A stretch of DNA of 64,000 nt from Candidatus Zixiibacteriota bacterium (GCA_043819555.1 JBDREQ010000020.1:22690-86689); one strand, 5' to 3'; numbered from the stretch's first letter, positions 7,338 to 37,911 are shown. Numbers and translations: made by a program. The notes: generated by a model from the letters alone, not told the origin.

Positions 7338-9007
7338 TTACAGACAGAAATCGAATACTTCGCCCTACATTCATCCACCCGCATTTCCCAGTTATCTCCA
7401 TCCAGGCAGCAGGCCTTATATTTGGCGCTTGGCATGTATGCTTCCCAGAGTCCGAAATCGCCACCACAATTCGGAGTTTTGCTGGGAGTTTCCTCATATG
7501 TTACCGCAACATCCGGATTTGGATCACATGCCGGGGCATTGCAGCATACGGCTGAATCAATCAAACAGGGCGCGTCGCCACCCTTAAAAACGAAATTGAT
7601 AACGTACACGGCATCACCGACATTGACAGATCCATCATTATTGGCGTCCCCAGCATACATCGGCTCCGGAGGAGGGCCGCCTTTAAACACATGATTGATA
7701 ACATAGACGGCATCACCGACATTTGTTGAGCCATCTCTATTGGCATCTCCGCAAACAATCGCCTCTGTAAGATTTATTGAGATTCCGCAAATTTCACCTT
7801 CTCCAAGAATGTCCCGCACCTCAATCATAATTTCATGCACCCCGGTGTCGGAAGGCGTTGACTGCCATTCATAAACGCCGGTTGCGGGATCCAGGATTCC
7901 TGGTCCATATAATGTATAAGTAAGTTCATCGCACAATTCGGGCCCAAAAGCATTGAATATGTACTGGATGTACGAACCTGCTTCAGCCTCAATATCTTCG
8001 TAACAGGCATTATCAAACACCGGAGCATAGCTATATATAATCACTTCGGTTGTGAACACATCCGAACAACCGGTGGGATCACAGACCTGATATACAACAC
8101 TGTGAATCCCGATATCCTCTGGCCCCGGTTCCCACTCCCATTCACCGGTGGCAGTATTCATTGTACCCGGTCCTTCAATCAGCTCAAATGTGATTTCATC
8201 TCCCTCAGCATCTTCGCCAAAGAAATCGTAATACATATAACTACAGATATAGCGATTAAGTGTTTCTGGATGATTGGTAACATAAGGGAGAGTATTCGGA
8301 TCGGGGCAGCAAACGTTGGCGAATATATGGAAATTAATATCTATACCCCAATCATCTGCAATAAAACCCCAGATGCTATTCCAATATTCCATTGAACGCC
8401 ACTGCCCGCATGATCCATCGTCTGACATTATTGAAATCGTGTCATTTATCTGATCAATGACCGTATATCCAACATAGAAATCGCCGGTTACGGTAATCGG
8501 TTCGGTAGGAAAAACAGTTGTAAGATAAGGGAAAAAATAAATTTCGGATCCGGGAACATGAATAATTTCTATTAGTTCTCCCGGAAATCCGTATTCATCG
8601 CTATCCCAAATTAATACATTAATCCCATTTCCTGAAACATTAACGCTGCCAGCTTCCCAAAATGCGAAACTAACTGACGTCAATGTGCAAGCATCAAGCG
8701 GCGTAAATCGCATATTAAAGAAATCGTCTCCATAAGCATCAGGAATAGGCCAATAATAATACTCGTTGCAAGTATAATCCAGCCACTCACAATAGGATTT
8801 ATCGCCGACCGCTTGTGATTTTTCCGGCAATGAAATATCCGCCCCCGACAATATCTTCTCTTTGTCGATTAATCGAGGGGTTTTTCCCTGAATAGTATTC
8901 TCTGTCGCGACATTTTCTGAACTGACATCCAAGGCCAGTAACAGCATAAATATGCCGCAGCTTAGAACCGTTATTGTGAAAATAAAAGCACTGACTTTCC
9001 TTTGCAT
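7301..9007 (-). CDS. Secreted or membrane-anchored protein with two Ig/cadherin-like repeats and an internal dockerin; probably frameshifted
   Basis: GGAGG RBS before ATG 9007; hydrophobic N-terminus; repeats GPGTMNTATGEWEWEP and GPGILDPATGVYEWQS; dockerin at 7565-7753. Confidence 0.8.
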   Translation of the reverse strand: MQRKVSAFIFTITVLSCGIFMLLLALDVSSENVATENTIQGKTPRLIDKEKILSGADISLPEKSQAVGDKSYCEWLDYTCNEYYYWPIPDAYGDDFFNMRFTPLDACTLTSVSFAFWEAGSVNVSGNGINVLIWDSDEYGFPGELIEIIHVPGSEIYFFPYLTTVFPTEPITVTGDFYVGYTVIDQINDTISIMSDDGSCGQWRSMEYWNSIWGFIADDWGIDINFHIFANVCCPDPNTLPYVTNHPETLNRYICSYMYYDFFGEDAEGDEITFELIEGPGTMNTATGEWEWEPGPEDIGIHSVVYQVCDPTGCSDVFTTEVIIYSYAPVFDNACYEDIEAEAGSYIQYIFNAFGPELCDELTYTLYGPGILDPATGVYEWQSTPSDTGVHEIMIEVRDILGEGEICGISINLTEAIVCGDANRDGSTNVGDAVYVINHVFKGGPPPEPMYAGDANNDGSVNVGDAVYVINFVFKGGDAPCLIDSAVCCNAPACDPNPDVAVTYEETPSKTPNCGGDFGLWEAYMPSAKYKACCLDGDNWEMRVDECRAKYSISVCKQAERTLKVRTM

Positions 9008-9321
9008 ATAACCTCCCCGCAACATATGCCAATCCATCGCGATAAAACACCCCGCATTCGCGAATGAATTAAGATTTATATAACTTGTTCACTGGGTAAT
9101 TCTCCCGCCCCGGGATGAATTACATTTGCCAATGCAAAATCAGATATAGGATTTAATTTTTATGAAATTTGAATCGCAAATTCCACCTTCCATCTTCGAT
9201 AAACATATATATTTTGCGCCCAAAAGTCAATTGCTTTAACCCTCACAAATAGTCAATTGACAATTTGACCAAATAGTTGTTTCTTGGATTTGCTCGCTGA
9301 ATTATAAACTAAGGTGTAATT

Positions 9322-10374: not shown

Positions 10375-10406
10375 TGTTGACGGGATTCGCATATATATTC
10401 TAATTG

Positions 10407-10439
10407 AAAAAATACCGCCGGTTTTGTAAATGCCGGCGG
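10407..10439 (-). terminator. Intrinsic terminator between convergent genes
   Basis: CCGCCGG/CCGGCGG stem with a T-tract on the minus strand. Confidence 0.6.
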
Positions 10440-10464: not shown

Positions 10465-11826
10465 CTACTCTTTATTGACGATTAAATCCTTTCGTGACAG
10501 ATTTAATTTGTCGAAACTCTCCGATGATATGACATAATACCAATCTGAAAAGCGGGCATTCAACGTTTCACTGAGAATTCGGCCATCAGTAACATTCTTG
10601 TGCCATTTTTCGTGAGCGTCATACCCGGTTTTATTATCACGATCGGCGTCTGTCCATAGGCTGTCATCAGTCGTTAAAAAGTCAGTATTGGCAGGTTTGG
10701 ACGGTTCGGTAAACACAGATTGGTCAAACTCGGTTGATATAAAAAGATATCTGTTTTCAGCGCTTTCTCCACTACCGTCGCCGTCCTCGGTACCGGCGGT
10801 CACCGATAGTCCTGTTCCATAGAGAACTTCACCGAATCGCAGGGTGTAAATGACGCCGTCATCAGTCCTGACTATTAATTCACCTTCGTTTGATTTGAGT
10901 TCGCCGTCCCGGGTAAAATAAAATCCCTTACTCTGGAGGTTCATAACATCAGCACGATTGATTTCCTGTCCATTTTGGTTTTGCTTTTGCAGGTTTTGAG
11001 ACAGGCCGGCCGGCTTGGGACGAACGCCGACAATTTTCAAACCATCAATCGCGGTTTTTAATTCGGATAATATGGTCGAATCGACTTTTTTCCCGTATCC
11101 CATATCCTGAGCTGTCCAGTCGCTGCCGTTTTTATATAAAATTAGTTCATCGTGTTCGTTCAGGCGCCCCGATCTTTCATCAATGGAATAATCAAGAAGG
11201 GACAGGCGATTGATTTTGTTTTTATCGACTTTCAGCAGGTCCGTATCAATCCAATCCTCAAATTTGGTGGAGATGTCTATGGATGTTTTGACCGCATAGA
11301 CTCGTTTCTCATCAGGCAACCTCACAAATCTGAATCCTTGACCCTCTTCAACCGGATTGCCGATTATCAAATCAGCAAGGATATTCTCTTGAATATCCTT
11401 AATAGTAACCCGCGTGCCGTATCCTGATGACGCCAAATTGGATTCATCCAACGGATCGATGACACCGCAGGATTCATGATCGGCAATTTTATCCGAACGA
11501 AAATCATCTTTGACGATGCCAATAATTCCCGAAGCTATGCGAGCCAAACGATCCTTATTATCGGCAGGGTAATCATGATGGGAGGGGATGCTCCACCGAT
11601 TTTTCGTAAACGTTACCTTAAAAGGCAATGCCGTTCCTGTATTATTATCGTATTCTACAATTTCAAGGGTGGCTGCCGCGTTGGGATCGTTAAAATTCGG
11701 GAAAAATGATTCTCCCTGATCCTGAAAAGCCGAAGGGATTATTCGATCAGGAGACGCGATCAGAGCTATTATAAGAAGGGCCGCAGCGGCACCCGCGAAC
11801 CATAAAGTTGTTTTATTATCTTTCAT
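10465..11826 (-). CDS. DUF4340-type membrane-anchored accessory protein of a Gld-like ABC module
   Basis: N-terminal TM; WSIPSHHDYPAD, LIIGN..FVR..DEKRVYAV and YTLRFGE; last gene of the ATPase/permease operon. Confidence 0.7.
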   Translation of the reverse strand: MKDNKTTLWFAGAAAALLIIALIASPDRIIPSAFQDQGESFFPNFNDPNAAATLEIVEYDNNTGTALPFKVTFTKNRWSIPSHHDYPADNKDRLARIASGIIGIVKDDFRSDKIADHESCGVIDPLDESNLASSGYGTRVTIKDIQENILADLIIGNPVEEGQGFRFVRLPDEKRVYAVKTSIDISTKFEDWIDTDLLKVDKNKINRLSLLDYSIDERSGRLNEHDELILYKNGSDWTAQDMGYGKKVDSTILSELKTAIDGLKIVGVRPKPAGLSQNLQKQNQNGQEINRADVMNLQSKGFYFTRDGELKSNEGELIVRTDDGVIYTLRFGEVLYGTGLSVTAGTEDGDGSGESAENRYLFISTEFDQSVFTEPSKPANTDFLTTDDSLWTDADRDNKTGYDAHEKWHKNVTDGRILSETLNARFSDWYYVISSESFDKLNLSRKDLIVNKE

Positions 11827-11830
11827 TGCG

Positions 11831-15279: not shown

Positions 15280-15347
15280 CAATATTACCTCGCATAAGAA
15301 TCCCAACACATAACACGTTAATTATATTTGTACCGGTCAGAGTTTGG

Positions 15348-15376: not shown

Positions 15377-15625
15377 GCGCGACAGATAAAGCCATTCTCT
15401 CCTCTTTTAATAAGCCATTATGGCAAATATGAATTATATTTCAGTATATTTCATGGGTTCCAGAATATTTTTGCAAATTTCTCAAACATAAAGCCATGAA
15501 TAGGTGTTTCATAAATCCCGGAATTTGTTATATTTAGACGGAAATTACTTAAAGGCGCTCAATGATTATAAGCTGATTGCGTACTAATGTTAACGCACAA
15601 CATTTTCAAACAGCAGAAGGTCACT

Positions 15626-17956
15626 ATGAAAAATTCTTGCTTCATTGTATTGCTTTTTATAATGGTTGCCTCCATTAATATTCAGGCTCAGGACAGCGAT
15701 TGCGGGACAGTTGTCAATCCCGATCAGGTTGAGCAGGCTTTGAGAATAGAGCGCGAGATGCAATTGGCATCCAAAGTTCTAGGCGCCACAGCTCATATTG
15801 AAATCCCGATTGCTTATCATATTATCCGTCGTACCGATGGAACCGGAGGCTTTTCTTTGACTGATTTGACAGCCTCGACCGATAGCGCCAATATTTTATT
15901 TTCTCCGTTAAATGTCAGTATTTATCAATATTCATTGGATTATATAGATGATGACGGTTTCTTCTTTGATACCGAAACAAATTCGCGTTTCGATGAACTC
16001 CGAAGTATTAATGTCGTTCATGAAGCAATAAATATTTATTTCCTGCCTACTGAATCCGGATTCCCGTATTGCGGATTGTCATCGTTTACGTTTTCCGGAA
16101 CACAGGGGATATTAATGAGCAATAATTGCGCTGGAGAAGCTATTATCAATTCCACATTGGTCCATGAAATTGGCCATTATTTTAATTTATATCATACTCA
16201 TGAAACCGCCTTTGGTGATGAATGCCCCGATGCGAGTAATTGTTCTGCAGCTGGCGATTTGATTTGTGATACGCCCGCCGATCCAAATCTTTCTGGTCTC
16301 GTTGATGCTTCTTGTGTTTATACCGGGACCGGCACTTCTCCCGCATCATGCGGCTCAGAAACATATAATCCGCAAATCGAAAATATCATGTCTTATTCCC
16401 GAAAGTCCTGCCGTGATTTTCACAGCGATATGCAAATTGATAAATTCAGAACGACTCTTTTGACTCTCCGACCCGAATTAGTCTTTGGCATTGACGGATT
16501 TCTTGTGTTACCGGGCGCGATTGAAGCGCTCCCGACCGTTGCCGGCCAAACTTCAGATAGCGTTATAAGGATTATTAACACCGCAGCGACTCCATTTGAT
16601 ATTACATCCGTTTCCACTTCAATCGGAATTATTAGTGTATCCGGTCCTTCGCCAATAACCCTGAATGAAGATGATACCGTTTCTTACCTTGTCAGTTTTG
16701 ACGCAACTGCCTTGACCGGTGAATGCGATCTTGGCCCGAGAGAAGATACTGTTATCTTCAATACAACTCATCCGGAAGTGGCAATCGCTTCAATTCCGGT
16801 ATCACCCACGGTTGTTTATGCCATCCCGAACGACGAACATCTCACGACCGGTTCCACATGCCTGATTTTTACGGTACCCAACACGCCCGGAATATCTGAC
16901 CGGACCAGCGCCGGATTTGTACCGTCCGGGTTTGGCAATATTCTCTTTGATGGCTCTCTATTGATTGGCATTATTGACGGAACCGATACTACAACCTATA
17001 TGGATTTGTATGGGACGGAAGATTTTTCGATTATTGATACTTATGCAGGCGATATTGATGCGGCTGGCCGCAATAGCCAGACAATCAGATATGTAACCAA
17101 TGATAATCGAATTCATGGTTCGGTGAGCTATCATTATGGCTATAATAGCCTTGGGATCGATAGCTGTTCCGCGCTGGAAATAGAATACACTATTTCCAAT
17201 CCATGCGATACAGCCCTTAATATTGTCGCCGGTATTTTCTGTGATTTTGATATTGATAATTCAGGAGATAATGACGCCTTTATAAATGGAGAGATGGTCA
17301 TAGCCACAGACGGGACTGGCGGCGCGGCACAATCAGTGGCCTTAGCGGTCCTTCAAAGTTGTGGCGCCGGGCCAATCCTGAGAATAATCTCAAATCCGAA
17401 CTTGATATACCCCACTAATGGGCTGACTGATTCCGATGCCTATCGTGAATTGACCTCGCCCAGCAGTACCGGCTCGTTGAATTCGACTGACGTTTCGTCG
17501 TTAATATCTTTTGGCGCGGTAACGCTTGACCCGGGCGAAACTCAGTTTTTCCAGGCGGCGATAATATTTTCGGGTACCGGTTCTGACGACCTCAATGCCC
17601 CTCTCCTTAACGCAAGCTCGCTGGCGAAGGTGGTTTTCCCCGATACCGATGGCGACTGCATAACCGATGCTCTGGATAACTGTCCGGGAACTTATAATCC
17701 GGATCAGGCCGATCAAAACGGGAACAGTATTGGAGATGTATGCGAGTATAAATGCGGTGATGCCAACAGCGACGACCAAACCAATGTCGGTGATGCCGTT
17801 TTTATAATTAATCATGCTTTTAAAGGCGGCCCGGCGCCCGATCCTTATGAGGCCTGCGATAGCAACTGCGATGAAGCGTGCAATGTCGGTGATGCTGTTT
17901 ATCTAATCAATCATATCTTCAAAAGCGGGCCGGTTCCGTGTGCGGAGTGTGAGTAG
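15626..17956 (+). CDS. Secreted M43 (pappalysin-like) metzincin protease with TSP3 repeat and C-terminal dockerin
   Basis: Signal peptide, then a DCGT Cys-switch-like motif, HEIGHYFNLYH zinc motif, GDLICDTP, Met-turn NIMSY, DNCPGTYNPDQADQNGNSIGDVC and a dockerin at 17753-17941. Alternative start 15587. Confidence 0.88.
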   Translation: MKNSCFIVLLFIMVASINIQAQDSDCGTVVNPDQVEQALRIEREMQLASKVLGATAHIEIPIAYHIIRRTDGTGGFSLTDLTASTDSANILFSPLNVSIYQYSLDYIDDDGFFFDTETNSRFDELRSINVVHEAINIYFLPTESGFPYCGLSSFTFSGTQGILMSNNCAGEAIINSTLVHEIGHYFNLYHTHETAFGDECPDASNCSAAGDLICDTPADPNLSGLVDASCVYTGTGTSPASCGSETYNPQIENIMSYSRKSCRDFHSDMQIDKFRTTLLTLRPELVFGIDGFLVLPGAIEALPTVAGQTSDSVIRIINTAATPFDITSVSTSIGIISVSGPSPITLNEDDTVSYLVSFDATALTGECDLGPREDTVIFNTTHPEVAIASIPVSPTVVYAIPNDEHLTTGSTCLIFTVPNTPGISDRTSAGFVPSGFGNILFDGSLLIGIIDGTDTTTYMDLYGTEDFSIIDTYAGDIDAAGRNSQTIRYVTNDNRIHGSVSYHYGYNSLGIDSCSALEIEYTISNPCDTALNIVAGIFCDFDIDNSGDNDAFINGEMVIATDGTGGAAQSVALAVLQSCGAGPILRIISNPNLIYPTNGLTDSDAYRELTSPSSTGSLNSTDVSSLISFGAVTLDPGETQFFQAAIIFSGTGSDDLNAPLLNASSLAKVVFPDTDGDCITDALDNCPGTYNPDQADQNGNSIGDVCEYKCGDANSDDQTNVGDAVFIINHAFKGGPAPDPYEACDSNCDEACNVGDAVYLINHIFKSGPVPCAECE

Positions 17957-17959
17957 ACT

Positions 17960-19099: not shown

Positions 19100-19292
19100 A
19101 ATATCATTATTATAATAGATGGTTATTCCATATAGGTCAACTTTTAAAGTGGAATATCGATAATCTGCAAAAATCTTCCTGCCCTCTTGATTTTTATGGC
19201 AGATTGGGCTTATATTGGAATTTCCAAATTCTAATGGGTTAGGAGTGACAAAAATTGATCCCAAAATATAAATATCCAGGAAGGAGTGGCTC

Positions 19293-21074: not shown

Positions 21075-21099
21075 GGCACACGCCATAGGAGATACGAAC

Positions 21100-26185: not shown

Positions 26186-28945
26186 ATGAAATCATGGAGA
26201 CATTTTATTGGTGGCGCCGTTTGTATTCTGACGATCATTGCGGGGATTGACTGCATGGCTCAGGACCCGGGGCTTCCTGATACCGTTAAAATCGAGGGGG
26301 GACCGCTGATTGTCGGAAGATCAATCCCTCTCGCATTTACTGTTGTAAATGATGAATTCGTCCGGGGGAATACATCCGGCCTATTAATTTTCTCAAATGA
26401 TGGCGGTTGCGCCAGCTATGATTCGGTCGTTTATATTAATCGCCAAAATGACCCATCTGTTATGGATTTTAGGTTGGTCAGATCGCGAAAGGAAACCTGT
26501 ATTGGAAATGATAGCCTTCATGTCGTCAATGGCACCTGGTTCGGAAATCCCCTGCCTCCCGGAAGTGATCCAATTCTCCTTCTTTATTTCACGGGTATCA
26601 ACACCGGTCATATAACCATTGATTCTTCCTATTTTCCGCCCGGGGCTCCGTTTGCGTTGCAACGGTGGGATTACATCAATGGCTATACGCCGCAATTTAC
26701 ATCAACCACTATTGAGATTATCGAAGGAACATTGCCTCCGGAAATTGCAGTTCCCGATGGTTATCTCTCTACAACCGCCGGAGAAAGCATTAGTTTTGAA
26801 ATTGGAGGATATTCACCTGAAGATTTCCCAATCACTCTTGAACTGATTGGCATGAAAGGTTTCGACGATGACGCAAGGTTACCGGAAAATTTACCAACTT
26901 TGAGCGAAGAGAATCCGGCGCTCTTCGAATGGTATGTTACTTCCAATGACATTGGCATCTGGACCGCCTTATTTAGAGTCTGTGATACCGAGGGATTATG
27001 CGTTGTCGACAGCGTCGTTATTCAGGTTGTGGGAAGCGCACCCTATTTAATTACCATGAACATACAAGAAATAATGGGTGTTTGTAATGCCAACAGTTTA
27101 GCCCACGGTAATTTCGATGAAGACGACAATCCAGAATTATTTATCAGCGGAACCGGGAGTAATTTAACTCCTACCATGGAGCTGTACGATTTTAATTCTT
27201 CGGAAGGTTGGCAACGAGTATTTGCACATAAAGACCTGGAACCGAAATTTGGCTCACAAGCGGGTTATTTTAATGGCGACAGTAATTTGGATGTTTTCTT
27301 AATGGGATTTGAAAACGGGCCATACCGAGTTCTTACCGCTGAAGGAGATGGCGCTAATTCTTTTGCGCTTTCAGGATTTGAAAATGATGGCCATGTAACG
27401 CGCAATATTATCAGTGGAGAATTTACGGGTGATAATTATATCGATGTCGCCTCAACATGGCACGACGGTGTTCGGATTTATGCCGGCAATAATCAGGGTG
27501 ATTTTTCATATATCTCCATAATTCCCACTTCCGACTCTGCGGTTACTGTAAACTCCGCCGATTTTAATGGTGATGGAATCGATGATTTGGCTATTGGTAC
27601 TAAAAGCGGTATAAAAATATATCTTGGCGACGGGACTGCTGGATTTAATGAAGTGGAATTTCATCCACAAGTGTATGCCACTCTGGATGTCGAGATTACC
27701 AACAACGGCAGTGATTTCAATAACGATAATATTTACGATCTGTGTATCTCCACGCCATCTGTTGGAGGCGAAAGAAGTGAAATTGTTATTTATCTTGGCA
27801 ATGGGGATGGTACGTTCAGCCAGCATGTGATTCGCGATATCACGGGACAAGTTTTTGGCAATTGCGTTGGCGATTTTAATAACGATAGTCGACTCGATAT
27901 TGCGTTCGTCAATGGCTCCCAAAAATATGTCGGTATTTTATTTGGCGAAGGGGATGCCACATTTTCAAATGAGATGAGATATGAAGTTAAAAATCATATC
28001 CCCAGATATATTGATTGTTTTGATGCTGATCTGGATGGCGATCTCGATATAATAGTCGCATCTATTACCGTGGACCAGGGAAATTCGCTTTATTATCTGG
28101 AAAATCAGACAAATCCAGATGGTTACTTGCCCCAGTCACTAACATTGACCGCATTTGATAACGCCACCATTGAACTCAATTCTGCGGACGGGAAAGTATT
28201 CAATCGGATAAAAAACGTGATGCCTTCGGGAGATTATTATCGCCGCAATGTCGATCTTGATGATGATATGGATGATTTTATCTCCATGGGCGTCGTCGAA
28301 AATGAGGCTTATTCGCTCAAAGCGTTCCCTAAATCAGATAAATCAATAGGAGAGACATTCTCACTGGAATTTACTATTAATGGGCGGCTCTACCGCCTGG
28401 CCAAAGATATGCCAATGCGGTCCGAAGGTTATCAGTTTACGTTTTACGCAGGCGATGATTTTCCCGCTATGCCTCGGCCGGGGAAAATTACGCATATAAA
28501 TCCGCCAACCTTTATGTGGCAGGGGGAAGGACCGTTTCATTTTCAATTAGCCCGCGACTATGATTTCAATAACGTACTTTATGATTTGACAATTTACGGA
28601 AACGAATATACGACCGACGGCCTGTTGGACGTGATTGACACAACTACATATTATTGGCGGATTAAACCGGTGGGCGAGCCCGAATACGATTGCCTGTATG
28701 TTATCAGTTTATACCTCAATCCGGGCAATCATTGCGGCGACGCCAATGATGATGGAATTGTAAACATCGGCGATGCGGTATTTCTCATCAACCATATATT
28801 CAAAGGCGGACAGGCGCCATATCCTTTAGAAATAGGCGATGCCAATTGCGATGGTAACACAAATGTAGGAGACGCTGTTTATATCATTAATGTTGTATTC
28901 AAGGGCGGACCGGGTATATGTGACAATTGTGATATAGCATGGTAG
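26186..28945 (+). CDS. Secreted protein: cohesin-like N-terminus, Ig-like domain, FG-GAP/VCBS repeats and C-terminal dockerin
   Basis: GGAGG RBS and signal peptide; about 7 DFNGDG..D-type repeats with YLG.G; dockerin at 28733-28921. Confidence 0.85.
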   Translation: MKSWRHFIGGAVCILTIIAGIDCMAQDPGLPDTVKIEGGPLIVGRSIPLAFTVVNDEFVRGNTSGLLIFSNDGGCASYDSVVYINRQNDPSVMDFRLVRSRKETCIGNDSLHVVNGTWFGNPLPPGSDPILLLYFTGINTGHITIDSSYFPPGAPFALQRWDYINGYTPQFTSTTIEIIEGTLPPEIAVPDGYLSTTAGESISFEIGGYSPEDFPITLELIGMKGFDDDARLPENLPTLSEENPALFEWYVTSNDIGIWTALFRVCDTEGLCVVDSVVIQVVGSAPYLITMNIQEIMGVCNANSLAHGNFDEDDNPELFISGTGSNLTPTMELYDFNSSEGWQRVFAHKDLEPKFGSQAGYFNGDSNLDVFLMGFENGPYRVLTAEGDGANSFALSGFENDGHVTRNIISGEFTGDNYIDVASTWHDGVRIYAGNNQGDFSYISIIPTSDSAVTVNSADFNGDGIDDLAIGTKSGIKIYLGDGTAGFNEVEFHPQVYATLDVEITNNGSDFNNDNIYDLCISTPSVGGERSEIVIYLGNGDGTFSQHVIRDITGQVFGNCVGDFNNDSRLDIAFVNGSQKYVGILFGEGDATFSNEMRYEVKNHIPRYIDCFDADLDGDLDIIVASITVDQGNSLYYLENQTNPDGYLPQSLTLTAFDNATIELNSADGKVFNRIKNVMPSGDYYRRNVDLDDDMDDFISMGVVENEAYSLKAFPKSDKSIGETFSLEFTINGRLYRLAKDMPMRSEGYQFTFYAGDDFPAMPRPGKITHINPPTFMWQGEGPFHFQLARDYDFNNVLYDLTIYGNEYTTDGLLDVIDTTTYYWRIKPVGEPEYDCLYVISLYLNPGNHCGDANDDGIVNIGDAVFLINHIFKGGQAPYPLEIGDANCDGNTNVGDAVYIINVVFKGGPGICDNCDIAW

Positions 28946-30798: not shown

Positions 30799-32936
30799 AG
30801 ACAGTCCAGACAAAAAGAAAGAGATTGGATGAAATCCTCCTGGCGGAGGGAAACATCGATCAGGAACAGATTCTTGAAGCGCTTATGCGCCAGAAAGCTC
30901 ATGGCGGCAGATTTGGTACTCAGCTACTTTATTATCGTTATGTTGATGAACGCAACCTGGTAAGAGCTTTAACCATCCAGCTAAACTGTGCCGGTATAGT
31001 TCTGTCGGATACCAAAATCGATGAAAATGTCATAAAAATGCTGCCGGTCAAACACGCAGTTGCAAGAAAGATTATACCATTTAAGTATGATGAAAAATCA
31101 AACACTCTAAGTATCGCATGTGAAGATCCGACTGATCTAACCCTCATCAACGATACAAATTACCTGGTACAAGGTAAAAATATAAAGCTCTACGTTGCTA
31201 CCGAATTGGCGATTGATGCGGCGATCAACAAATACTATCTTGGCCGTGATATCAATCTTGAGGATAGTCTGTCGCTGGAATTGCCAGACCTGACTCTTAT
31301 AAATGATTTGCCAGATGAATCGGACGATGAAAGAATCCGCAGGGATAAACAAGCCCCAGGCAAGTCAGTATTGATAATTACTGATGAGGAATACTCCGGA
31401 TCGCTCTTTCAGAGTGTTCTTGAACGGGATAAATTCGAAGTTGCGATCTATGATACTTGTGATAAGGCCTTGACTTTAATTGAAGAACGAAACTTTCACG
31501 CAATCCTGATAAAAAAATCAGTTCCCGATGATCATAAAAAACTTACTGATCGGTTGAGGAAAATATCTCCTCGGACAAAGATTAGATTATTCGATACTTC
31601 GTCGTCGCTTTTATGGGATGATCAGCCGGATAACCTGACAGATTCCATCCTGAGGCAAAATCTCGATTTATTTTTATCAATGATGGCTTCTCGCGAGAAC
31701 ATTAACGAAAACCACAGCGGTACGGTTGGCCGATATGTATATAAACTCTGTTGTAAGCTTGGATTATGCGGTCAGGATCGAGCTGTAATTACAAATGCGG
31801 CATACATTCACGATCTAACCAGATATTATTATCGCGCCAATGACACTTCCGATTATGCGTCACTGATAAAGAAGACTATTAAATTGTCAGAGTCGGTCAA
31901 TTTTCCTCTGGTAATGACTGATATGCTTAAGGCTATGTATCAAGACCTGCGGCCCGAGTATAAGAAAACTCTTCCCCTGGAAATATTGGGAGGAAACATA
32001 CTGACAATTGTTGACCTATTTTGTGAAAATGTTCAGCTTAATCAAAAGCTAACCCTGGAGAAATTTGAGGCTGTAAAAAAACGGCTGCGAGATTATTCAA
32101 ATAAGCTTTTCCTCCCCGATGTGGTAGAAGCGTTTATCGGTATGGTACAGGAGGAAGTCCTGTTTTTCCAAACCTCCGGAATATCCACGCAAATAATGCT
32201 CTACTCGAACGATCAGGAAGCTTCCCATCCCCTTGAACTCAGATTAAAAAACGAAAACTTCATAGTTATTTCAGAATCTTCTTCCGATTCATTCTTAAAC
32301 CTCTATCATCGAAGCCGGCCTGATATCCTGGCATTGGTCATTAAGGGAAACCCCGCTCAAGTATCAAAGAAGATAAACGAATTTAGTCAAAAAGGTGTGA
32401 ACTATAAGCAAACGCCTACAATTCTGCTGGCCGAAACCAGAGTATTATCAGAGGCTGCAACCTTTTTCGATCAGGGGATTAAGGATGTCATTGCACTTGA
32501 TGGCAACCATGATTTACTTGTAGTTCAACTTAAGAAAATACATACAAGACTTATTGAACAAGCTAAGCAGAAAAATGACCCGGATGGGAAATTTGCTGGT
32601 GCCAGCGGACGATTATCAGATATTAATCTTATCGACCTTATACAGGCATTGGGTCCCGGGCGGAAAACCGTCAAGATAACTATTACCGGGGAAACTCTAT
32701 CACAAGATAAAGTGATTATATACCTGAAAAGGGGCAGTATAATCTTCGCCAAAACTAACAGCCTTAGCGGCGCTGATGCAGTTTATGAAGGAATGGCTTG
32801 GACGGATGGTCGGTGGCAGGTTGAACCGGTTGAGGAAACCGATCTTCCTGAACCCAACATTACGCTTTCTAATGACTCCATCCTAATGCAAGGCGCTTAT
32901 CAACTTGATGAAAAGATGAAAGCCGGTAAGCTCTAA
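30795..32936 (+). CDS. Multidomain protein: MshEN/T2SSE-N, REC-like, HD-like, REC-like, DUF4388-like
   Basis: RLDEILLAEG..LEALMRQ..RFG..L; LSIACEDP; AAYIHDL; GRLSDINLIDLIQAL..IYLKRGSIIFA..GADAVYE; TTG start overlaps the pilT stop. Confidence 0.7.
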   Translation: MKTVQTKRKRLDEILLAEGNIDQEQILEALMRQKAHGGRFGTQLLYYRYVDERNLVRALTIQLNCAGIVLSDTKIDENVIKMLPVKHAVARKIIPFKYDEKSNTLSIACEDPTDLTLINDTNYLVQGKNIKLYVATELAIDAAINKYYLGRDINLEDSLSLELPDLTLINDLPDESDDERIRRDKQAPGKSVLIITDEEYSGSLFQSVLERDKFEVAIYDTCDKALTLIEERNFHAILIKKSVPDDHKKLTDRLRKISPRTKIRLFDTSSSLLWDDQPDNLTDSILRQNLDLFLSMMASRENINENHSGTVGRYVYKLCCKLGLCGQDRAVITNAAYIHDLTRYYYRANDTSDYASLIKKTIKLSESVNFPLVMTDMLKAMYQDLRPEYKKTLPLEILGGNILTIVDLFCENVQLNQKLTLEKFEAVKKRLRDYSNKLFLPDVVEAFIGMVQEEVLFFQTSGISTQIMLYSNDQEASHPLELRLKNENFIVISESSSDSFLNLYHRSRPDILALVIKGNPAQVSKKINEFSQKGVNYKQTPTILLAETRVLSEAATFFDQGIKDVIALDGNHDLLVVQLKKIHTRLIEQAKQKNDPDGKFAGASGRLSDINLIDLIQALGPGRKTVKITITGETLSQDKVIIYLKRGSIIFAKTNSLSGADAVYEGMAWTDGRWQVEPVEETDLPEPNITLSNDSILMQGAYQLDEKMKAGKL

Positions 32937-33275: not shown

Positions 33276-34034
33276 CTATTTAAGCAATATCATCTGACGG
33301 GATGCGCTTTGATTGTTTCCCGTTAAGCGATAGGTGTAAACGCCGCTGGGGAGATTATCTCCTGAGAATATATACTCATAATTTCCCGCTGGTTTGTGGC
33401 CCAAATCAATTTTCTCAATTACTTGTCCGGAAAGATTAAAAACCTCGAAACTATATTGCCCCGCCTTTTTAACAGTATATAAAAACGTCGTCGATGGATT
33501 AAAGGGATTGGGGTAATTCTGTTCCAGAATAAAATGAGTTGGCAGCACGCCAAATGGATCGTCCACCGATAGGGGGATAAAATCAATATATCCATCCTTA
33601 AGAGTCACGCTTAAAGGAACGCCGATGGAATCAACTAATTCAATAATTCCGGAGAATTTGACATAAGCCGAATCAAGGGCATCCGAAGCTGCTTGAAGAT
33701 TAAACTGAAAAAGCGGTTCCCCGGCCGGAAGAGTCAGAGGTGATGAAAAATCCTCCCAGATGACAAATATTTTTCCGTCGACCACGTTTGTGGTCCACGA
33801 CTGAATATATGATGTTGCCATAGTATGAAACTCAACTTTGGATGCGTCGAATTCAATAAAGATTTGAACTCCAGCCACATCAGTAAAATCTTCTGTCAAT
33901 AGTTTCATCTGGACGATATCCGAAGGCGCCGCCGTCGCACTGGTGATTTCAAGCGTCACCGCAAACGCCGATGATGGGACTACAAGCAGGAGCGCGAAGA
34001 GCAATCCCCAATATTTACGACCCATCTTATTCAT
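33276..34034 (-). CDS. Secreted single-cohesin-like protein with a T9SS-type-A/FlgD-like C-terminal domain
   Basis: Signal peptide; VAGVQIFIEFD...VIWEDF...PLFQFNL...DGYI resembles scaffold cohesins 3 and 4; LEQNYPNPFNP...GVYTYRL...MILLK; GGAGG RBS. Confidence 0.75.
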   Translation of the reverse strand: MNKMGRKYWGLLFALLLVVPSSAFAVTLEITSATAAPSDIVQMKLLTEDFTDVAGVQIFIEFDASKVEFHTMATSYIQSWTTNVVDGKIFVIWEDFSSPLTLPAGEPLFQFNLQAASDALDSAYVKFSGIIELVDSIGVPLSVTLKDGYIDFIPLSVDDPFGVLPTHFILEQNYPNPFNPSTTFLYTVKKAGQYSFEVFNLSGQVIEKIDLGHKPAGNYEYIFSGDNLPSGVYTYRLTGNNQSASRQMILLK

Positions 34035-34110: not shown

Positions 34111-37100
34111 TTATTTCAAAAGCATCATCTTTTTTGTCTGTTTGAATGTTCCCGACGAGAATTTATATAGATAAATTCCCGAAGTAACGCTCATACCATT
34201 ATCGTCCGTACCATTCCAGACAAATTCAATAATGCCGGCTTCATGATAACCATGAAAAGTTCTAATCTTCTGTCCCATAATATTATAGATATCAAGCGAA
34301 TATTCCCCGGACTCTCTCATGGAAGCCATTATCTTCGTTTCCGGGTTAAACGGATTAGGAATATTCTGTTCGAGACTATACTGGGCCGGGAGCGTGGTTC
34401 CGCTCTTTGTTAATCGGCCATTAATGATATTTAATCGATAGTTGAATCCTGCCTCATCAGCCAATTCGGCACCCGAAATAGTTATTTCACTGGATCCGCC
34501 AAACTCTCCGGTAGTCCTGAACGAGAGTTCCGCAATAGCCTGCGAACCGATAAGATTTAAGGGCGCTTCGAAATCTTCCCATATGAGATGGAAAGCGTTA
34601 TCGGTTCCGTTGAGAGTTGTACCGGACAAGATATCGGAATTGACTCCGGTAAATTGGACTTCATTGCCGTCAAATGAAATGTGAAGTTCAATGCCTGCCA
34701 GGTTTTCGACATCAGAAATATAAATCGGTACTGTGACAATATCATTGGGATGAATAAAAGCCTCTCCAATTTCGATTGTAACCGGTTCCACTGTGGAAAA
34801 TAGTGGCTTGGCCGTCAGCGGAGACCAGGTTGCGTTCACATCACCCAATCTAATTCCATAAAAATGCGGCACAACTATATCTTCGTTAACGATCGAAATA
34901 TTTTTCGATCGCGGCGCCAGCTGCCAGTTAGTCAATGTTATAGCATATGCGCCGTCGATAAAAGTCCAATTTCCGCCGGGAAGAGCTCCCAATTGTGCCA
35001 GATAACGACGGATCGAAATAACATCCGAGACGCTGACCGTATTGGTGAGGTTTACGTCGGCGGCGATTAATTGGTAACCAAGGTTAAATCGCTCAACGTA
35101 GGCTATATGTCGGCGAATTTTAATTACGTCGGCAACTGAAACACCGGGGGCATCCTCATCCAACCATGGTGTTATTGAATATCCGCCGATTTCCAAGTCA
35201 ACAAAGCTATATTCACCGGCTCCATCGGTTATATCCGAGCCGCTCGCTTGTCCGCTTAAATCGACATTAACGCCTTCAATGGGAATGTCATTTCCATAAT
35301 ATACAACCGTTCCCGAAATATCGAACAAGGGATCAATGATTGTAACTTCACCGTTACAGAAACCGAGTGATAAATTCGGGTTGCCAAATTCATCAACAAT
35401 TTCGTTCCCATCAAGCCAGACAATCGGAGATATTTCTCCAACATTGCCAACCGAGGTAAACCAGAGCGTCATCAAAACACCGCCGTCAGGAACGGTAATA
35501 GGATTGCCAATATTATCCCAAATGAAGTGAATATAGCCATTCCCATTGATATCGGACAAGTAACCAATAGTGGCTCCGACCATATAGTTTGAAGTCACCG
35601 AATCAGCCGCCAGAACAGCATTTAAATACGTTAAATGCAATTCCACTCCGGCCACTCCGGCGATTTGATAAGCATACACCGGAACGCCTATTGCCAAACC
35701 TTGAGGCCCGTTAACCTCTGCGATATCAATAGCGCATTCATCACAATTGGCAATATTGAAAGAAAGAGTCAAAACCTGGGGAGAATGAGAAGCGTCAGCA
35801 TTAACGGTTATAGTCGTTTGCTGTGGTCCAAAACTGAGTTCCGCGGTATTAACTTCAAAAGATACAGTCGCGGGGGCGGAACCTGAAGTAGCCGAGAGAG
35901 TAACTCCGGTACCCTCTATCGCGGTCCAATCCATCGCGCCTGTACCGATATTAGAAATATCAAAATCACCGGTCACGATCGTACCCATACATGTATTTCC
36001 GAAATTAATTGAATTTGTCGATAGTGCCAAATCAGGCATTCCATAGACATCAAACAGCACCGGGATTTCAGTCGGGCTGACTAATGAATTGGATGCGAAA
36101 GTAGCCGTTGCAATATGAACCCCTTCAGGTAAACCCGCCGGATTGACACTGAATTCAATGAAATCACCGGACATTCCTGAGGTTGGCGCCAGGGCTACCC
36201 AAAGCGCATCATCGGTTACCGACCAGGCAAGATTGCCATAACATGAATTTGTGATTTCAAAATTCTGAGGCGGGGGAGTCGTTCCAAGTTCGGCGCTGAA
36301 ATAAACTGTATCAACAGGGAAAGTGAAACATGGCAATCCCGTTATATCGATACTACCGGAAAAAAATTCAGTCGCGCGGGAAGATGCATCCGACTGGATA
36401 AATAAAAACTCAAACGCCGGTGGAATAAAAGCGGAATCTATCGGAACCATTTGAGTTGCCGCGGATGGATCAATTGAAAAATACATTTTCGCAAGTAATC
36501 CATTTCCGGTTGCCAAATATGGTTGAGTGATTCGTAATCCCTCAATATTGACAGTGTTGGCATCATTATCTATCGTTGCCAGGTGCTCTTCCCATGATTC
36601 TATGCGGCTTCCTGAAAATGATACCGAATCACAACTGAGGCCGGTTCCATTATACCAAAGTGGAATATTGAAATTACCGATTTCGACAAAATTCTGATAA
36701 TTTAACTCAACCACAACCTGCCCGCCTGCGGTGGCCATGACATTGGATACCCACAGAGTATCAGCGGCCGGTGTGTCATCAATAACTGTCAAATTAATCG
36801 TGACATCCTGGGGAGCATTATCAGTACCGAAATCGGCATTAAATGTTACAACATCGCTGTAATTTCCCGGTGTCAATCCGGTTAAATTGGCAAAAAATGT
36901 AATAGTTCGATTTCCAGTGCCGCTGGTCGGATTGATCGTTAACCAGGCCTCATCCTTGCCGGTGATTGTGAAATTTAAAGTTGGGCCACCGCAATTACTG
37001 ACATTTATTGCGCTATTTAAAATGTCTCCGTCGAATCCGCTGAAATTAATCTCGTTTGCAGAAAGTGCCAAACAAGGCGGGGGTGGGTCTAAAACCAAAG

Positions 37101-37911
37101 TTACAGCTATTTCCTGTGGCGAATTAGTTGCAGCCGGGTCGCTAACAGTAATAGTACCATTGTGAGTGCCTGCCAGTAAGCCAGTCTGATCAATATCGAC
37201 CGTTACCGTGGCCGGACCAGTCCCTGAAGCAGAACTTAGAGTAATCCAGCTGTCAGCTGTGGCGGTCCAGTTTAGCGTAGGGGCGCCGGTATTGGAAATA
37301 TCAAATGTTTGCGATGGGGGCGGAGTTCCATCCTGCACGGCGTTAAAATCAAGCGTGACCGGATCCAGAGCTATCGTTGGGCCAGATACCGGTTCTCCAA
37401 TTGTAATCGTCCCTGTTTTGAACTGTGGTACAAAAGTAGATCCGCCGGTTAAAGCTAATATAAATGGCGAAGATTCATTGTATGAAGTGGAATCCAGAGT
37501 GATTACTTGATCTGCTGCCCCGGGTGCTGGGGTAAACCAAACAGTAAAAATATTTCCCGTTCCAGGCTGCAAATACGCTTCGAATATGATAATTGCCCCG
37601 ACCTGGAATTTTTGGTTAACATTGTCGATTTCTGAAGGCTTATTGCCAACATAATCGATTCGTGAACCGCCAAAAGTAACCGAGTCGCATGTAATGTCGG
37701 GAGAATCCCATATGAATGGCATACCGAAACCGCCCAGTTCTTCATCATTATAAAGTTCGATTGGAACGGAAAAAGGATCGGTGCTTCCGGATGGAATACT
37801 TACCGATTCGACCCAAGCCGTATCGGCGATACCAGGATCTGGAACCGCATATACGGACGCGCCGAGGATAAAAACAGCAACTATGACGAATAAAACAATT
37901 TTATTCCCCAT
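34111..37911 (-). CDS. Scaffoldin-like secreted protein: 4 cohesin-like domains, 4 BACON/Ig-like domains, an atypical dockerin and a T9SS/FlgD-like CTD
   Basis: GGAGG RBS and signal peptide. Internal repeats CDSV.F.GSRI (x2), AG.ELH....IW (x2) and N.G...L.W...W...SG (x4). LEQNIPNPFNP..WNGTDD.G..V.SGIYLY..KKMMLLK at the C-terminus. Confidence 0.78.
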   Translation of the reverse strand: MGNKIVLFVIVAVFILGASVYAVPDPGIADTAWVESVSIPSGSTDPFSVPIELYNDEELGGFGMPFIWDSPDITCDSVTFGGSRIDYVGNKPSEIDNVNQKFQVGAIIIFEAYLQPGTGNIFTVWFTPAPGAADQVITLDSTSYNESSPFILALTGGSTFVPQFKTGTITIGEPVSGPTIALDPVTLDFNAVQDGTPPPSQTFDISNTGAPTLNWTATADSWITLSSASGTGPATVTVDIDQTGLLAGTHNGTITVSDPAATNSPQEIAVTLVLDPPPPCLALSANEINFSGFDGDILNSAINVSNCGGPTLNFTITGKDEAWLTINPTSGTGNRTITFFANLTGLTPGNYSDVVTFNADFGTDNAPQDVTINLTVIDDTPAADTLWVSNVMATAGGQVVVELNYQNFVEIGNFNIPLWYNGTGLSCDSVSFSGSRIESWEEHLATIDNDANTVNIEGLRITQPYLATGNGLLAKMYFSIDPSAATQMVPIDSAFIPPAFEFLFIQSDASSRATEFFSGSIDITGLPCFTFPVDTVYFSAELGTTPPPQNFEITNSCYGNLAWSVTDDALWVALAPTSGMSGDFIEFSVNPAGLPEGVHIATATFASNSLVSPTEIPVLFDVYGMPDLALSTNSINFGNTCMGTIVTGDFDISNIGTGAMDWTAIEGTGVTLSATSGSAPATVSFEVNTAELSFGPQQTTITVNADASHSPQVLTLSFNIANCDECAIDIAEVNGPQGLAIGVPVYAYQIAGVAGVELHLTYLNAVLAADSVTSNYMVGATIGYLSDINGNGYIHFIWDNIGNPITVPDGGVLMTLWFTSVGNVGEISPIVWLDGNEIVDEFGNPNLSLGFCNGEVTIIDPLFDISGTVVYYGNDIPIEGVNVDLSGQASGSDITDGAGEYSFVDLEIGGYSITPWLDEDAPGVSVADVIKIRRHIAYVERFNLGYQLIAADVNLTNTVSVSDVISIRRYLAQLGALPGGNWTFIDGAYAITLTNWQLAPRSKNISIVNEDIVVPHFYGIRLGDVNATWSPLTAKPLFSTVEPVTIEIGEAFIHPNDIVTVPIYISDVENLAGIELHISFDGNEVQFTGVNSDILSGTTLNGTDNAFHLIWEDFEAPLNLIGSQAIAELSFRTTGEFGGSSEITISGAELADEAGFNYRLNIINGRLTKSGTTLPAQYSLEQNIPNPFNPETKIMASMRESGEYSLDIYNIMGQKIRTFHGYHEAGIIEFVWNGTDDNGMSVTSGIYLYKFSSGTFKQTKKMMLLK

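Follow-up and report, generated by a model that had tools for sequence, protein, structure and literature searches.

A putative cohesin-dockerin system for the display of proteases and adhesion-type proteins on T9SS-anchored scaffoldins in Zixibacteria

[quoted passage not shown] As read from the sequence, dozens of proteins, among them proteases and proteins of adhesion type but no cellulases, are probably hung on scaffolds at the outer membrane. The original prediction had seen in the window a surface complex of modular build, proteolytic or adhesive, on scaffolds exported by means of a C-terminal domain (CTD) in an uncultured lineage, and this reading is supported by the partition of dockerins and CTDs between proteins, the content of the cargo, and the presence of the T9SS components PorU and SprA. 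The features of the window are collected in Table 1.

Table 1. Scaffoldin and cargo features in the window (nucleotide positions counted from its first letter; aa, positions in the protein)
Feature	Position	Strand	Description
Cargo 1	7301..9037	(-)	578 aa; signal-peptide-like N-terminus, unassigned beta-rich region, Big_9 Ig/cadherin-like region, dockerin, Cys-rich tail
Cargo 1 tail	7304-7588	(-)	95 aa, Cys-rich, after the dockerin
Cargo 1 dockerin	7589-7750	(-)	aa 430-483; Pfam Dockerin_1 35.9 bits
Cargo 2	15587..17956	(+)	789 aa; signal peptide, peptidase M43, thrombospondin-type-3-like Ca-binding stretch, C-terminal dockerin
Cargo 2 dockerin	17756-17917	(+)	aa 724-777; Pfam Dockerin_1 23.7 bits
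Cargo 3	26186..28945	(+)	919 aa; signal peptide, FG-GAP beta-propeller, C-terminal dockerin
Cargo 3 dockerin	28736-28891	(+)	aa 851-902; Pfam Dockerin_1 28.8 bits
Small scaffoldin	33276..34034	(-)	252 aa; signal peptide, one cohesin, T9SS type A sorting domain
Small scaffoldin T9SS type A sorting domain	33288-33515	(-)	TIGR04183 44.1 bits
Small scaffoldin cohesin	33588-33947	(-)	class A; aa 30-149
Large scaffoldin	34111..37911	(-)	1266 aa; signal peptide, four cohesins, T9SS type A sorting domain
Large scaffoldin T9SS type A sorting domain	34123-34359	(-)	TIGR04183 34.1 bits
Large scaffoldin cohesin 4	34414-34770	(-)	class A; aa 1048-1166
Large scaffoldin degenerate dockerin-like module	34942-35169	(-)	Pfam 19.7 bits, below the 22.9 cut-off
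Large scaffoldin CarboxypepD_reg-like domain	35170-35319	(-)	
Large scaffoldin cohesin 3	35347-35724	(-)	class A; aa 730-855
Large scaffoldin Ig region	between cohesins 2 and 3	(-)	
Large scaffoldin cohesin 2	36352-36750	(-)	class B; aa 388-520
Large scaffoldin BACON_2/Ig region	between cohesins 1 and 2	(-)	
Large scaffoldin cohesin 1	37408-37812	(-)	class B; aa 34-168

The two scaffoldin genes lie on the same strand, the small one downstream of its larger neighbour at a distance of 76 bp, and had been predicted to form an operon encoding five cohesin-like domains. An iterated profile of the genome's own cohesins found five modules here, four in the large scaffoldin and one in the small scaffoldin, with domain E-values of 1e-24 to 1e-40. 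When the modules were scored singly with the Pfam Cohesin model (PF00963, gathering cut-off 24.1 bits), modules 3 and 4 of the large scaffoldin reached 28.1 and 27.5 bits, the module of the small scaffoldin reached 24.0 bits, just below the cut-off, and modules 1 and 2 gave no match even at E <= 1; the entire large scaffoldin scored 58.2 bits. Modules 1 and 2 are taken as putative cohesins on the basis of the iterated profile and, for module 1, of a structural model whose input alignment included Pfam-type cohesins. The genome's cohesins fall into two sequence classes (A and B), and one module of each class was modelled with AlphaFold, both models having the nine-stranded jelly-roll of cohesins. 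That of the small scaffoldin module (pLDDT 96.5) found its best match among solved structures in 5nrm_A (TM 0.90 query-normalised, E 3.6e-10), and that of module 1 (pLDDT 95.4) gave query-normalised TM values of 0.74-0.80 against solved cohesins. All the structure matches listed for the two models were cohesins or cohesin-like modules, with a sequence identity of 9-20% between the modelled modules and the solved cohesins, and a profile made from 23 cohesin modules of the genome matches 22 solved cohesins at E < 1e-3. A complex prediction for the small scaffoldin cohesin, the cargo 1 dockerin and two calcium ions, run with a separate alignment for each protein, gave a score of 0.02 with a mark of 0.32, which speaks neither for nor against binding.

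Both operon proteins had been described as ending in a sorting-type CTD with the motif QN.PNPFNP...LLK. That motif is visible in the sequences, and both domains lie above the TIGR04183 cut-off of 23 bits and finish three residues before the C-terminus. An internal stretch of the large scaffoldin was considered as a full dockerin and rejected, since with the genome's own dockerin profile it gave E 0.023 and in Pfam it remains under the cut-off; it is listed only as degenerate dockerin-like. Full-length, stop-free orthologs of the large scaffoldin exist within the genus (86% identity) and in other genera (52% and 45%). The 86% ortholog is adjoined by the ortholog of the small scaffoldin, and an 85% ortholog of the latter is found in a public Zixibacteria record.

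Duplicated calcium-loop dockerins had been reported in three secreted proteins of the window, and in all of them Dockerin_1 (PF00404, gathering cut-off 22.9 bits) matched above the cut-off and inside the intervals originally assigned. The assignment of the cargoes as an M43 protease, an FG-GAP propeller and a protein with an HExxH domain was borne out for the first two and failed for the third. Cargo 2 has a Peptidase_M43 domain (33 bits, cut-off 23, Pfam) with the zinc-binding motif HEIGH at aa 193, the sole HExxH found among the cargo proteins by pattern search, and cargo 3 matches FG-GAP_3 in four stretches (69.2 bits, Pfam). The same pattern search found no HExxH in cargo 1, which rules it out as an HExxH protein; it is Ig/cadherin-like instead, with a Big_9 Ig domain (23.8 bits, Pfam) and Big_9/cadherin-like proteins as its nearest Atlas clusters (score 0.92), and a Pfam scan of its tail and of aa 80-250 gave no match. 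A cohesin-like domain suspected by eye at the N-terminus of cargo 3 found no support in the genome's own cohesin profile (domain E-value 0.18). As anticipated, TIGR04183 matched none of the three window cargo proteins, and no glycoside hydrolase domain was found in them at E <= 0.01.

The same organisation extends over the whole genome, as a count of dockerin cargo and T9SS core genes, proposed as a check of the original prediction, made clear. The genome is a metagenome bin, assigned to Zixibacteria from a SecA tree, from the identity of its SecA to that of members of the phylum and from the source of the 85% ortholog. It contains 60 ORFs with dockerins, 21 with cohesins and 45 with sorting domains; cohesin matches amount to 13 by Pfam and, by the genome's own profile, to 23 modules in 16 proteins. 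Dockerin_1 gave 61 matches, 60 of them above the cut-off, mostly C-terminal in their proteins. These dockerins are highly regular and near-symmetric. Each has a pair of EF-hand-like calcium loops in tandem (D-x-N-x-D ... D), with a helix after either loop, and in the alignment of all 61 the loop positions of both repeats are either invariant (D8, D19) or at least 90% conserved (D12, D41, N43, D45, D52), as is G7 (at least 90%); the cysteines flanking the dockerins are conserved as well. Sorting domains occur on none of the 55 dockerin-only ORFs vs 14 of the 21 cohesin ORFs, and dockerin, cohesin and sorting domain are found together in three ORFs. A hydrophobic N-terminal segment was detected by a crude heuristic in 45/55 cargo ORFs and 20/21 cohesin ORFs. 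On the cohesin proteins scanned with Pfam the accessory domains are BACON_2, Big_9, CarboxypepD_reg and Big_13, and no CBM family was found on the 12 proteins so scanned. That there are two cohesin classes, and that several scaffoldins have a dockerin or dockerin-like module of their own, suggests a hierarchical scaffold-on-scaffold assembly by analogy with complex cellulosomes.

The cargo set is taken here as the 57 ORFs that carry a dockerin but no Pfam cohesin match. Of these, 15 are peptidases (S8, M28, M1, M6, M14, M43, C10 and trypsin-like), 13 are beta-propellers (FG-GAP, LVIVD, PQQ-like and WD40) and about 13 are proteins of Ig, cadherin, PKD, TSP3, lectin or fn3 type, the largest cargo being a Big_9/cadherin giant of 2966 aa. 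Glycoside hydrolase families were found on 0/57 at E <= 1e-5 (Pfam), and in 15 of the 57 the dockerin is the sole recognisable domain; some of these could be unrecognised carbohydrate-active enzymes. Since 8 of the 29 other sorting-domain proteins are also peptidases (C25, four S8, two M6 and C1), the organism appears to invest heavily in surface proteolysis.

With respect to export, the sortase PorU is present at 623.2 bits (cut-off 420) and the translocon, SprA, at a summed 602.5 bits (cut-off 200), with one TAA within its last piece. A PorV-like gene adjoins PorU, its pieces (90.7 + 58.8 + 27.2 bits) remaining under the cut-off of 250; GldK reached 87 bits (cut-off 350), and the GldM model found no match in the genome and was equally silent in the control. 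Scaffoldins would leave the cytoplasm by Sec export and pass the SprA translocon, after which the sortase PorU would fix them on the outside of the cell. The dockerin-tagged proteins would likewise start with Sec; for their passage of the outer membrane the ordinary candidate is a T2SS-like cluster, made up of an ATPase, a platform protein, a secretin and two pseudopilins. Once outside they would dock on the cohesins with the help of calcium, and the cell would end up in a coat, part proteolytic and part adhesive, with which to feed on particulate protein. There are two secretin loci, one in a type IV pilus cluster (PilM/N/O and secretin) and the other T2SS- or MSHA-like, and these do not decide the outer-membrane route of the cargo. 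We infer from the sequences the binding of dockerins to cohesins, the surface location and the passage of the cargo over the outer membrane.

It could be that the cargo takes another way out. Cohesin and dockerin would pair in the periplasm and cross the T9SS translocon as a folded complex, carried on the sorting domain of the scaffoldin. The plug-and-socket pair would then act as an adaptor in secretion in addition to its part in display. Sec-type N-termini on a cargo that lacks sorting domains throughout would fit such a route, as would dockerin-flanking cysteines suited to folding in an oxidising periplasm, a T9SS that moves folded proteins, and a set of 14 sorting-domain scaffoldins, seemingly larger than pure anchoring needs. 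The ordinary route offered by the T2SS-like cluster weighs against it, as do the stoichiometric co-export that it would need, with about 60 cargo proteins vs some 23-28 cohesin modules, and the size of the cargo, which at up to 2966 aa seems too bulky; moreover, we know of no precedent. We regard this route as improbable, and hold equally slim the chance of the adaptor role that it would imply, in which one sorting signal serves dozens of cargoes and the two cohesin classes sort them into different surface assemblies.

Nor need the two module types be partners at all. A role as a tail or in binding other ligands is suspected for many non-cellulosomal dockerins, and those of Zixibacteria could be calcium-stabilised tails or binders of glycan, S-layer or an outer-membrane protein, with the cohesins as Ig-like spacers of T9SS surface proteins. 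The ratio of dockerins to cohesins, about 2-3 to 1, points in that direction, as do two genomes (G070 and G137) with 39 and 21 dockerin matches, respectively, and no Pfam cohesin match. However, dockerins were found in 149 and cohesins in 147 of the 151 Zixibacteria genomes sampled, and the two dockerin-free genomes (G065 and G089) lack cohesins too; both module types are clustered in one seven-gene locus (contig C72), and the cohesin models come near dockerin-binding cohesins, with TM up to 0.90. Besides, true cellulosomes as a rule also have more dockerins than cohesins, one report giving about 70 dockerin enzymes vs 9 CipA cohesins for C. thermocellum (10.64898/2026.01.19.700288). Modules that work independently appear to us an unlikely explanation. 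It can also be the case that the complex serves chiefly to attach cells to one another or to particles, as a structural or adhesive coat to which proteolysis is incidental; the propellers, the Ig- and cadherin-type proteins with their giant and the 15 cargo ORFs without a known domain speak for this. Nevertheless, peptidases are the largest recognisable catalytic class of the cargo, they combine endopeptidases (S8, M43, M6, C10 and trypsin-like) with exopeptidases (M28, M1 and M14) in what looks like a degradative set, and eight further peptidases carry the sorting domain directly, which leaves a mainly structural or adhesive coat with little probability.

The cohesin-dockerin display system that we favour resembles the clostridial and ruminococcal cellulosomes (such as those with the cohesins of Acetivibrio cellulolyticus ScaB, 5nrm, and of C. 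thermocellum OlpA, 3ul4, and CipA, 1aoh) in its cohesin fold (TM 0.74-0.90 query-normalised), in the C-terminal duplicated calcium-loop dockerin on secreted proteins, and in its multi-cohesin scaffoldins, dockerin-bearing scaffoldins and scaffoldin gene cluster. It differs from them in the diderm host, in the T9SS sorting domain that replaces SLH modules or sortase, and in having neither a cellulose-binding module nor glycoside hydrolase cargo. It is not a cellulosome in the strict sense, since glycoside hydrolase cargo, a cellulose-binding module and SLH/sortase anchoring to a monoderm wall are lacking; several cohesins per scaffoldin are present. The non-cellulosomal cohesin of Archaeoglobus fulgidus (PDB 2xdh), matched by the genome's cohesin profile at E 4.9e-7 and by both cohesin models, is likewise a cohesin fold outside cellulolytic organisms, although it is an isolated archaeal module without T9SS context or a large cargo set. 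Non-cellulosomal cohesin and dockerin modules were reportedly surveyed by Peer et al. in 2009. As in Porphyromonas gingivalis, where the CTD of T9SS cargo is described as cleaved by the PorU sortase (PMC4804311), a type A sorting domain stands at the C-terminus of surface proteins and homologs of PorU and SprA/Sov are present. P. gingivalis, however, has a sorting domain on each enzyme, whereas in Zixibacteria most enzymes carry a dockerin and the sorting domain is on the sockets; eight peptidases of our genome still use the direct route.

Published proposals of a protein-degrading cohesin-dockerin surface system already exist, one for Cloacimonadota (PMC8542988) and one for Planctomycetes (PMC6461901). 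In Ca. Stygibacter (Cloacimonadota), also uncultured and of the FCB superphylum (Fibrobacteres-Chlorobi-Bacteroidetes), Williams et al. (2021) proposed from sequence a cellulosome-like structure, in which signal-peptide enzymes with C-terminal dockerins, including S8 and C25 gingipain-like peptidases, go with a protein resembling a scaffoldin, which has cohesins in tandem and, at its C-terminus, a conserved (T9SS) domain for cell attachment (PMC8542988). There, a single scaffoldin of 3,755 aa has CBM2/CBM3, and dockerins are found on GH18 and GH57 enzymes, whereas our genome has about 21 cohesin proteins in two classes with no CBM2/3 match, dockerins on 60 ORFs and a cargo without glycoside hydrolases, and the trait is spread over the whole phylum sample. 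The "Planctosome" of freshwater Planctomycetes (Nemodlikiaceae), a purely computational proposal of Andrei et al. (2019), is similarly a non-cellulolytic cohesin/dockerin assembly, which would degrade polypeptides by means of zinc peptidases (M12B and M14) at the outer membrane (PMC6461901), but it belongs to a different superphylum, is tethered by a lamin-tail domain rather than by a T9SS sorting domain, and is simple, with one anchoring protein, one adaptor and few peptidases. These precedents limit the novelty of our proposal: on the basis of sequence, the same architecture has been put forward for Cloacimonadota and, anchored differently, for Planctomycetes. Our literature searches found no paper linking Zixibacteria with dockerins and, for Zixibacteria and cellulosomes, nothing apparently relevant.

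The cohesin-dockerin system is phylum-wide across the sampled Zixibacteria, which are widespread in sediments and aquifers and, to our knowledge, known from metagenomes only. If sockets and plugs do bind each other, a modular "proteolysome" on the cell would serve Zixibacteria to break down particulate protein, which would give the phylum a concrete ecological role. Parts of the cellulosome would then be mounted on a Gram-negative outer membrane by way of the type IX secretion pathway, raising the question of how about 55 proteins without a known outer-membrane export signal reach the scaffolds outside, and the regular dockerins together with the 252-aa single-cohesin scaffoldin would be convenient parts for Gram-negative surface display. 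More broadly, the cohesin-dockerin toolkit would be a general surface-assembly device and not a speciality of cellulose degradation.

The cohesin-dockerin/T9SS system exists as proposed and has good support from sequences and structural models, the binding between its modules being putative. A cross-tabulation of the source genome (a 3.35-Mb metagenome-assembled genome in 79 contigs, 97% complete, with 0.37% contamination) gave the key result: the T9SS type A C-terminal domain, here called the sorting domain, was found in 14 of the 21 cohesin ORFs versus none of the 55 dockerin-only ORFs. Pfam Dockerin_1 matched the genome 61 times, in 60 ORFs, all but one of the matches exceeding the cut-off; Pfam Cohesin rendered 13 matches, the genome's own cohesin profile located 23 modules spread over 16 proteins, and both sets combined make up the 21 cohesin ORFs; and 45 ORFs carry a sorting domain. 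Among the seven cohesin ORFs without it, one runs off a contig end, a dockerin takes its place in two, and the other four are short or differ at the C-terminus. A cohesin, a dockerin and a sorting domain occur together in three ORFs, which resemble adaptor scaffoldins. The dockerin ends within 20 residues of the protein C-terminus in 50 of 61 cases, and a signal-peptide-like N-terminus was detected by a crude hydrophobicity test in 45 of the 55 cargo (dockerin) ORFs and 20 of the 21 cohesin ORFs, several of those failing the test being truncated at contig ends. A genome-specific dockerin profile retrieved 13 further proteins, several of which are scaffoldins or other sorting-domain proteins, so that dockerins within scaffold-type proteins are probably commoner than Pfam indicates.

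Features of the window and of other contigs of the source genome (G000)
Feature	Location	Strand	Description
Cargo 1	window 7301-9037	-	Dockerin_1 35.9 bits, aa 430-483
Tail of cargo 1	window 7304-7588	-	95 aa after the dockerin, nine cysteines
ABC system	window 10465-15309	-	three genes: ABC ATPase; ABC-2 membrane protein fused to ABC_transp_aux; DUF4340 protein
Cargo 2	window 15587-17956	+	Dockerin_1 23.7 bits, aa 724-777
Overlapping ORF	window 17960-19762	-	
Overlapping ORF	window 19293-21074	+	
M16 pair	window 19293-22608	+	two insulinase-type peptidases
Cargo 3	window 26186-28945	+	Dockerin_1 28.8 bits, aa 851-902
PilT-like pair	window 29710-32936	+	T2SSE ATPase (362 aa) and 713-aa MshEN/DUF4388 protein
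Small scaffoldin	window 33276-34034	-	252 aa; sorting domain 44.1 bits
Large scaffoldin	window 34111-37911	-	1266 aa; sorting domain 34.1 bits
TMEM260-like protein	window 60327-63260	-	977 aa; protein O-mannosyltransferase domain, 161 bits
Second M16 pair	contig C73, locus L153, 4902-7591	-	adjoins the T2SS-like cluster
Scaffoldin cluster	G000:C72:5947-29266 (loci L136, L046)		seven consecutive genes on one strand
Split scaffoldin candidate	G000:C48:16988-18909 (locus L029)		406-aa cohesin-dockerin-sorting-domain ORF
SprA match	G000:C33:6742-12576		602.5 bits summed

In the window, the two scaffoldin genes are separated by 76 bp, and both products end, as had been proposed, in a sorting-type domain scoring over its cut-off of 23 bits. 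A cohesin profile built from the Pfam-confirmed cohesins of the genome and iterated over its ORFs located five modules, four of them in the large scaffoldin and the fifth in the small one (domain E-values 1e-24 to 1e-40), which agrees with the five cohesin-like domains originally counted. When modules were scored singly with Pfam Cohesin (cut-off 24.1 bits), module 3 reached 28.1, module 4 27.5 and the small protein 24.0 bits, and modules 1 and 2 gave no match; because of these uneven scores, one module of each kind was modelled. The module of the small scaffoldin (pLDDT 96.5) matched only cohesins or cohesin-like modules among the Foldseek hits listed, the best being 5nrm_A (query-normalised TM 0.90, E 3.6e-10), and all the matches listed for module 1 (pLDDT 95.4) are cohesins, with query-normalised TM of 0.74-0.80. 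The alternative that these domains are generic Ig or CBM folds does not hold for the two modules modelled, which give cohesin folds instead. In addition, the 23-module profile matched 22 cohesins of known structure at E < 1e-3, one of them being 2xdh, from Archaeoglobus, which is non-cellulosomal. A quick tree set six members apart as a class (SH-aLRT 96), namely modules 3 and 4, the small protein and three from contig C29, with modules 1 and 2 falling outside it with the remainder; by sequence the cohesins thus form two classes, and nothing more is taken from this tree, whose branches are long. The part of the large scaffoldin between modules 3 and 4 holds a CarboxypepD_reg-like domain and, after it, a degenerate segment resembling a dockerin (19.7 bits, under the Dockerin_1 cut-off).

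Two loci elsewhere in the genome also bear scaffoldin-type genes. The cluster on C72 encodes a protein with a cohesin and a sorting domain, a small protein with a sorting domain, a 2966-aa Big_9/cadherin giant that bears a dockerin, a protein combining cohesin, dockerin and sorting domain, two more proteins with a cohesin and a sorting domain, and a dockerin protein detected only by the genome's own profile. In the ORF on C48 the cohesin match starts upstream of the first start codon, and a preceding open frame of 1269 aa, which aligns with residues 179-398 of the large scaffoldin, stops at that point; both may belong to one large scaffoldin gene that a frameshift or an assembly error has divided.

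The window is a 64-kb piece of contig C20, and most of it is taken up by housekeeping genes (a trp operon, SecA, RNase G, def/fmt, DNA polymerase III delta'), among which the three dockerin genes, encoding exported proteins, are dispersed. Their dockerins score over the Pfam cut-off of 22.9 bits and lie within the intervals originally predicted. The interpretation of the whole as a putative proteolytic or adhesive surface complex stands, with one cargo label to be corrected. Cargo 2, with an M43 score of 33 bits and HEIGH at aa 193, is indeed a metallopeptidase of that family and cargo 3 an FG-GAP propeller (69 bits), but the HExxH domain ascribed to cargo 1 was an error, since a pattern search found the motif nowhere in this ORF, which has a Big_9 Ig domain and falls closest to Big_9/cadherin-like clusters of the Atlas. 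In cargo 1 the dockerin does not lie at the C-terminus; the interval originally assigned ends at the dockerin, before the Cys-rich tail, for which there was no Pfam match even at E <= 1.

The ABC system, which resembles the GldA/F/G gliding-associated transporter of Bacteroidota, lies just upstream of the gene for cargo 2, the M43 protein, and the PilT-like pair is flanked by cargo 3 and the scaffoldin operon. The two opposite-strand ORFs in the table overlap by ca. 470 bp, and at least one start codon has been over-called in the mechanical ORF list. The TMEM260-like protein could have a role in surface-protein glycosylation.

A domain scan of 57 dockerin ORFs without a Pfam cohesin (E <= 1e-5 for the 54 outside the window, E <= 0.01 for the three within it) found no glycoside hydrolase family, which extends to the genome what had been observed for the three cargoes of the window. 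Peptidase catalytic families appeared in 15 of these ORFs (four S8, five M28, and M1, M6, M14, trypsin-like, C10 and M43), an InhA-like MAM domain alone in one, and beta-propellers in 13 (four FG-GAP, three LVIVD, three PQQ-like, WD40, SBBP and Rax2-like). A further 13 bear Ig/cadherin, PKD, TSP3, fn3, BACON_2, C-type lectin, DUF7901 or DUF7451 domains, and in 15 the dockerin is the sole recognised domain. No CBM or enzyme domain was found on the 12 cohesin proteins scanned. Among the cohesin-free sorting-domain proteins (29 of 31 scanned, omitting PorU and a contig-end fragment), there were eight peptidases (C25, four S8, two M6 and C1) and no glycoside hydrolases. The presence of peptidases on both kinds of protein suggests that surface proteases would be deployed by two routes, of which the dockerin route would be the larger.

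In an alignment of the 61 dockerins, the helix after the first calcium loop is almost the same as that after the second, which would allow a dual binding mode, by analogy with clostridial dockerins. Cysteine is conserved immediately ahead of the first loop, at position four of the second and at the extreme end of the module, and a subset of copies shows three cysteines around the second loop; this pattern suggests disulfide clamps. About 11 of the 61 are divergent, with 24-38% identity to the reference copy versus 43-74% for the rest, and several of these are on scaffoldins or DUF7901 proteins. Together with the two cohesin classes, the divergent dockerins suggest the hypothesis of two binding specificities and a hierarchical assembly.

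Profile searches of the genome detected PorU (623 bits, cut-off 420), SprA (cut-off 200) and, directly after PorU, a PorV-like gene scoring below its cut-off. GldK scored 87 bits against a cut-off of 350, and GldM gave no match, a result of little weight because the control genomes were equally silent. The SprA match contains one TAA within its last piece, which could be a sequencing error, a true split or the end of a shorter SprA. Two secretin loci were found, one in a PilM/N/O-secretin type IV pilus cluster and the other with a T2SS-type ATPase, a platform protein and two pseudopilins. The mechanism proposed starts from what was observed: which modules there are, how many, and how they divide between protein classes, together with export signals and part of the T9SS. 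Scaffoldins would be exported, and PorU would remove their sorting domain and fix them on the surface, as in Bacteroidota (PMC4804311). Dockerin-tagged proteins would get outside by a route other than that of the scaffoldins and plug into the cohesins with calcium. The T2SS-like cluster is the ordinary candidate for passage of the cargo across the outer membrane, and nothing links the cluster to the cargo.

Although the Zixibacteria system can be likened to a cellulosome in its predicted working, it is not one in the strict sense, since its sequences rendered neither glycoside hydrolase cargo, nor a scaffoldin CBM, nor an SLH/sortase anchor. It is closest to two computational proposals, so that the architecture is already published. 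In Ca. Stygibacter (Cloacimonadota), Williams et al. (2021; PMC8542988) described dockerins on GH18, GH57, S8 and C25 enzymes and a scaffoldin of 3,755 aa in which cohesins are joined to CBM2/3 and a T9SS C-terminal domain, and in the "planctosome" of Andrei et al. (2019; PMC6461901) M12B and M14 peptidases are attached via cohesin-dockerin pairs with a lamin-tail anchor. In the library of papers searched, none mentioned both Zixibacteria and dockerin.

Three findings assign the source genome to Zixibacteria. The SecA of the window groups with that of a Candidatus Zixiibacteriota record (61% identity, SH-like support 98). The SecA of this record in turn shows 75-80% identity to those of five genomes in the phylum sample that belong to one family, and 58-73% to the other matches listed. 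Finally, the small scaffoldin has an 85% ortholog in a genome named "candidate division Zixibacteria bacterium" at NCBI. Full-length, stop-free orthologs of the large scaffoldin were found in the same genus (86%), another genus (52%) and a further genus (45%), with partial matches of 41-46% elsewhere in the family; the same-genus copy adjoins the ortholog of the small scaffoldin, and in that genome and one of a second genus the large scaffoldin ortholog shares a contig with SecA, ca. 5-7 kb away from it, as in the window. In the sample (151 genomes of 88 genera in a single class, the source genome included), Dockerin_1 is present in 149 genomes (up to 39 candidates were scored per genome, a ceiling that many genomes reached), and Cohesin in 147, over the cut-off in 140. 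The two genomes lacking dockerins also lack cohesins, and another two have dockerins without any Pfam cohesin match. Cohesins are present too in named Marinimicrobia and Zixibacteria records. Since the sampled genomes are related, these counts indicate a trait of the phylum as a whole, as opposed to 150 independent events.

This genome contributes the scale of the system, 60 dockerin ORFs in 3.35 Mb, cargo devoid of recognisable glycoside hydrolases, the clean partition between dockerin and sorting domain, the two cohesin classes and the near-universality of the system across the phylum sample. The most interesting question that it raises for these bacteria is by what path cargo lacking a sorting domain exits the periplasm.
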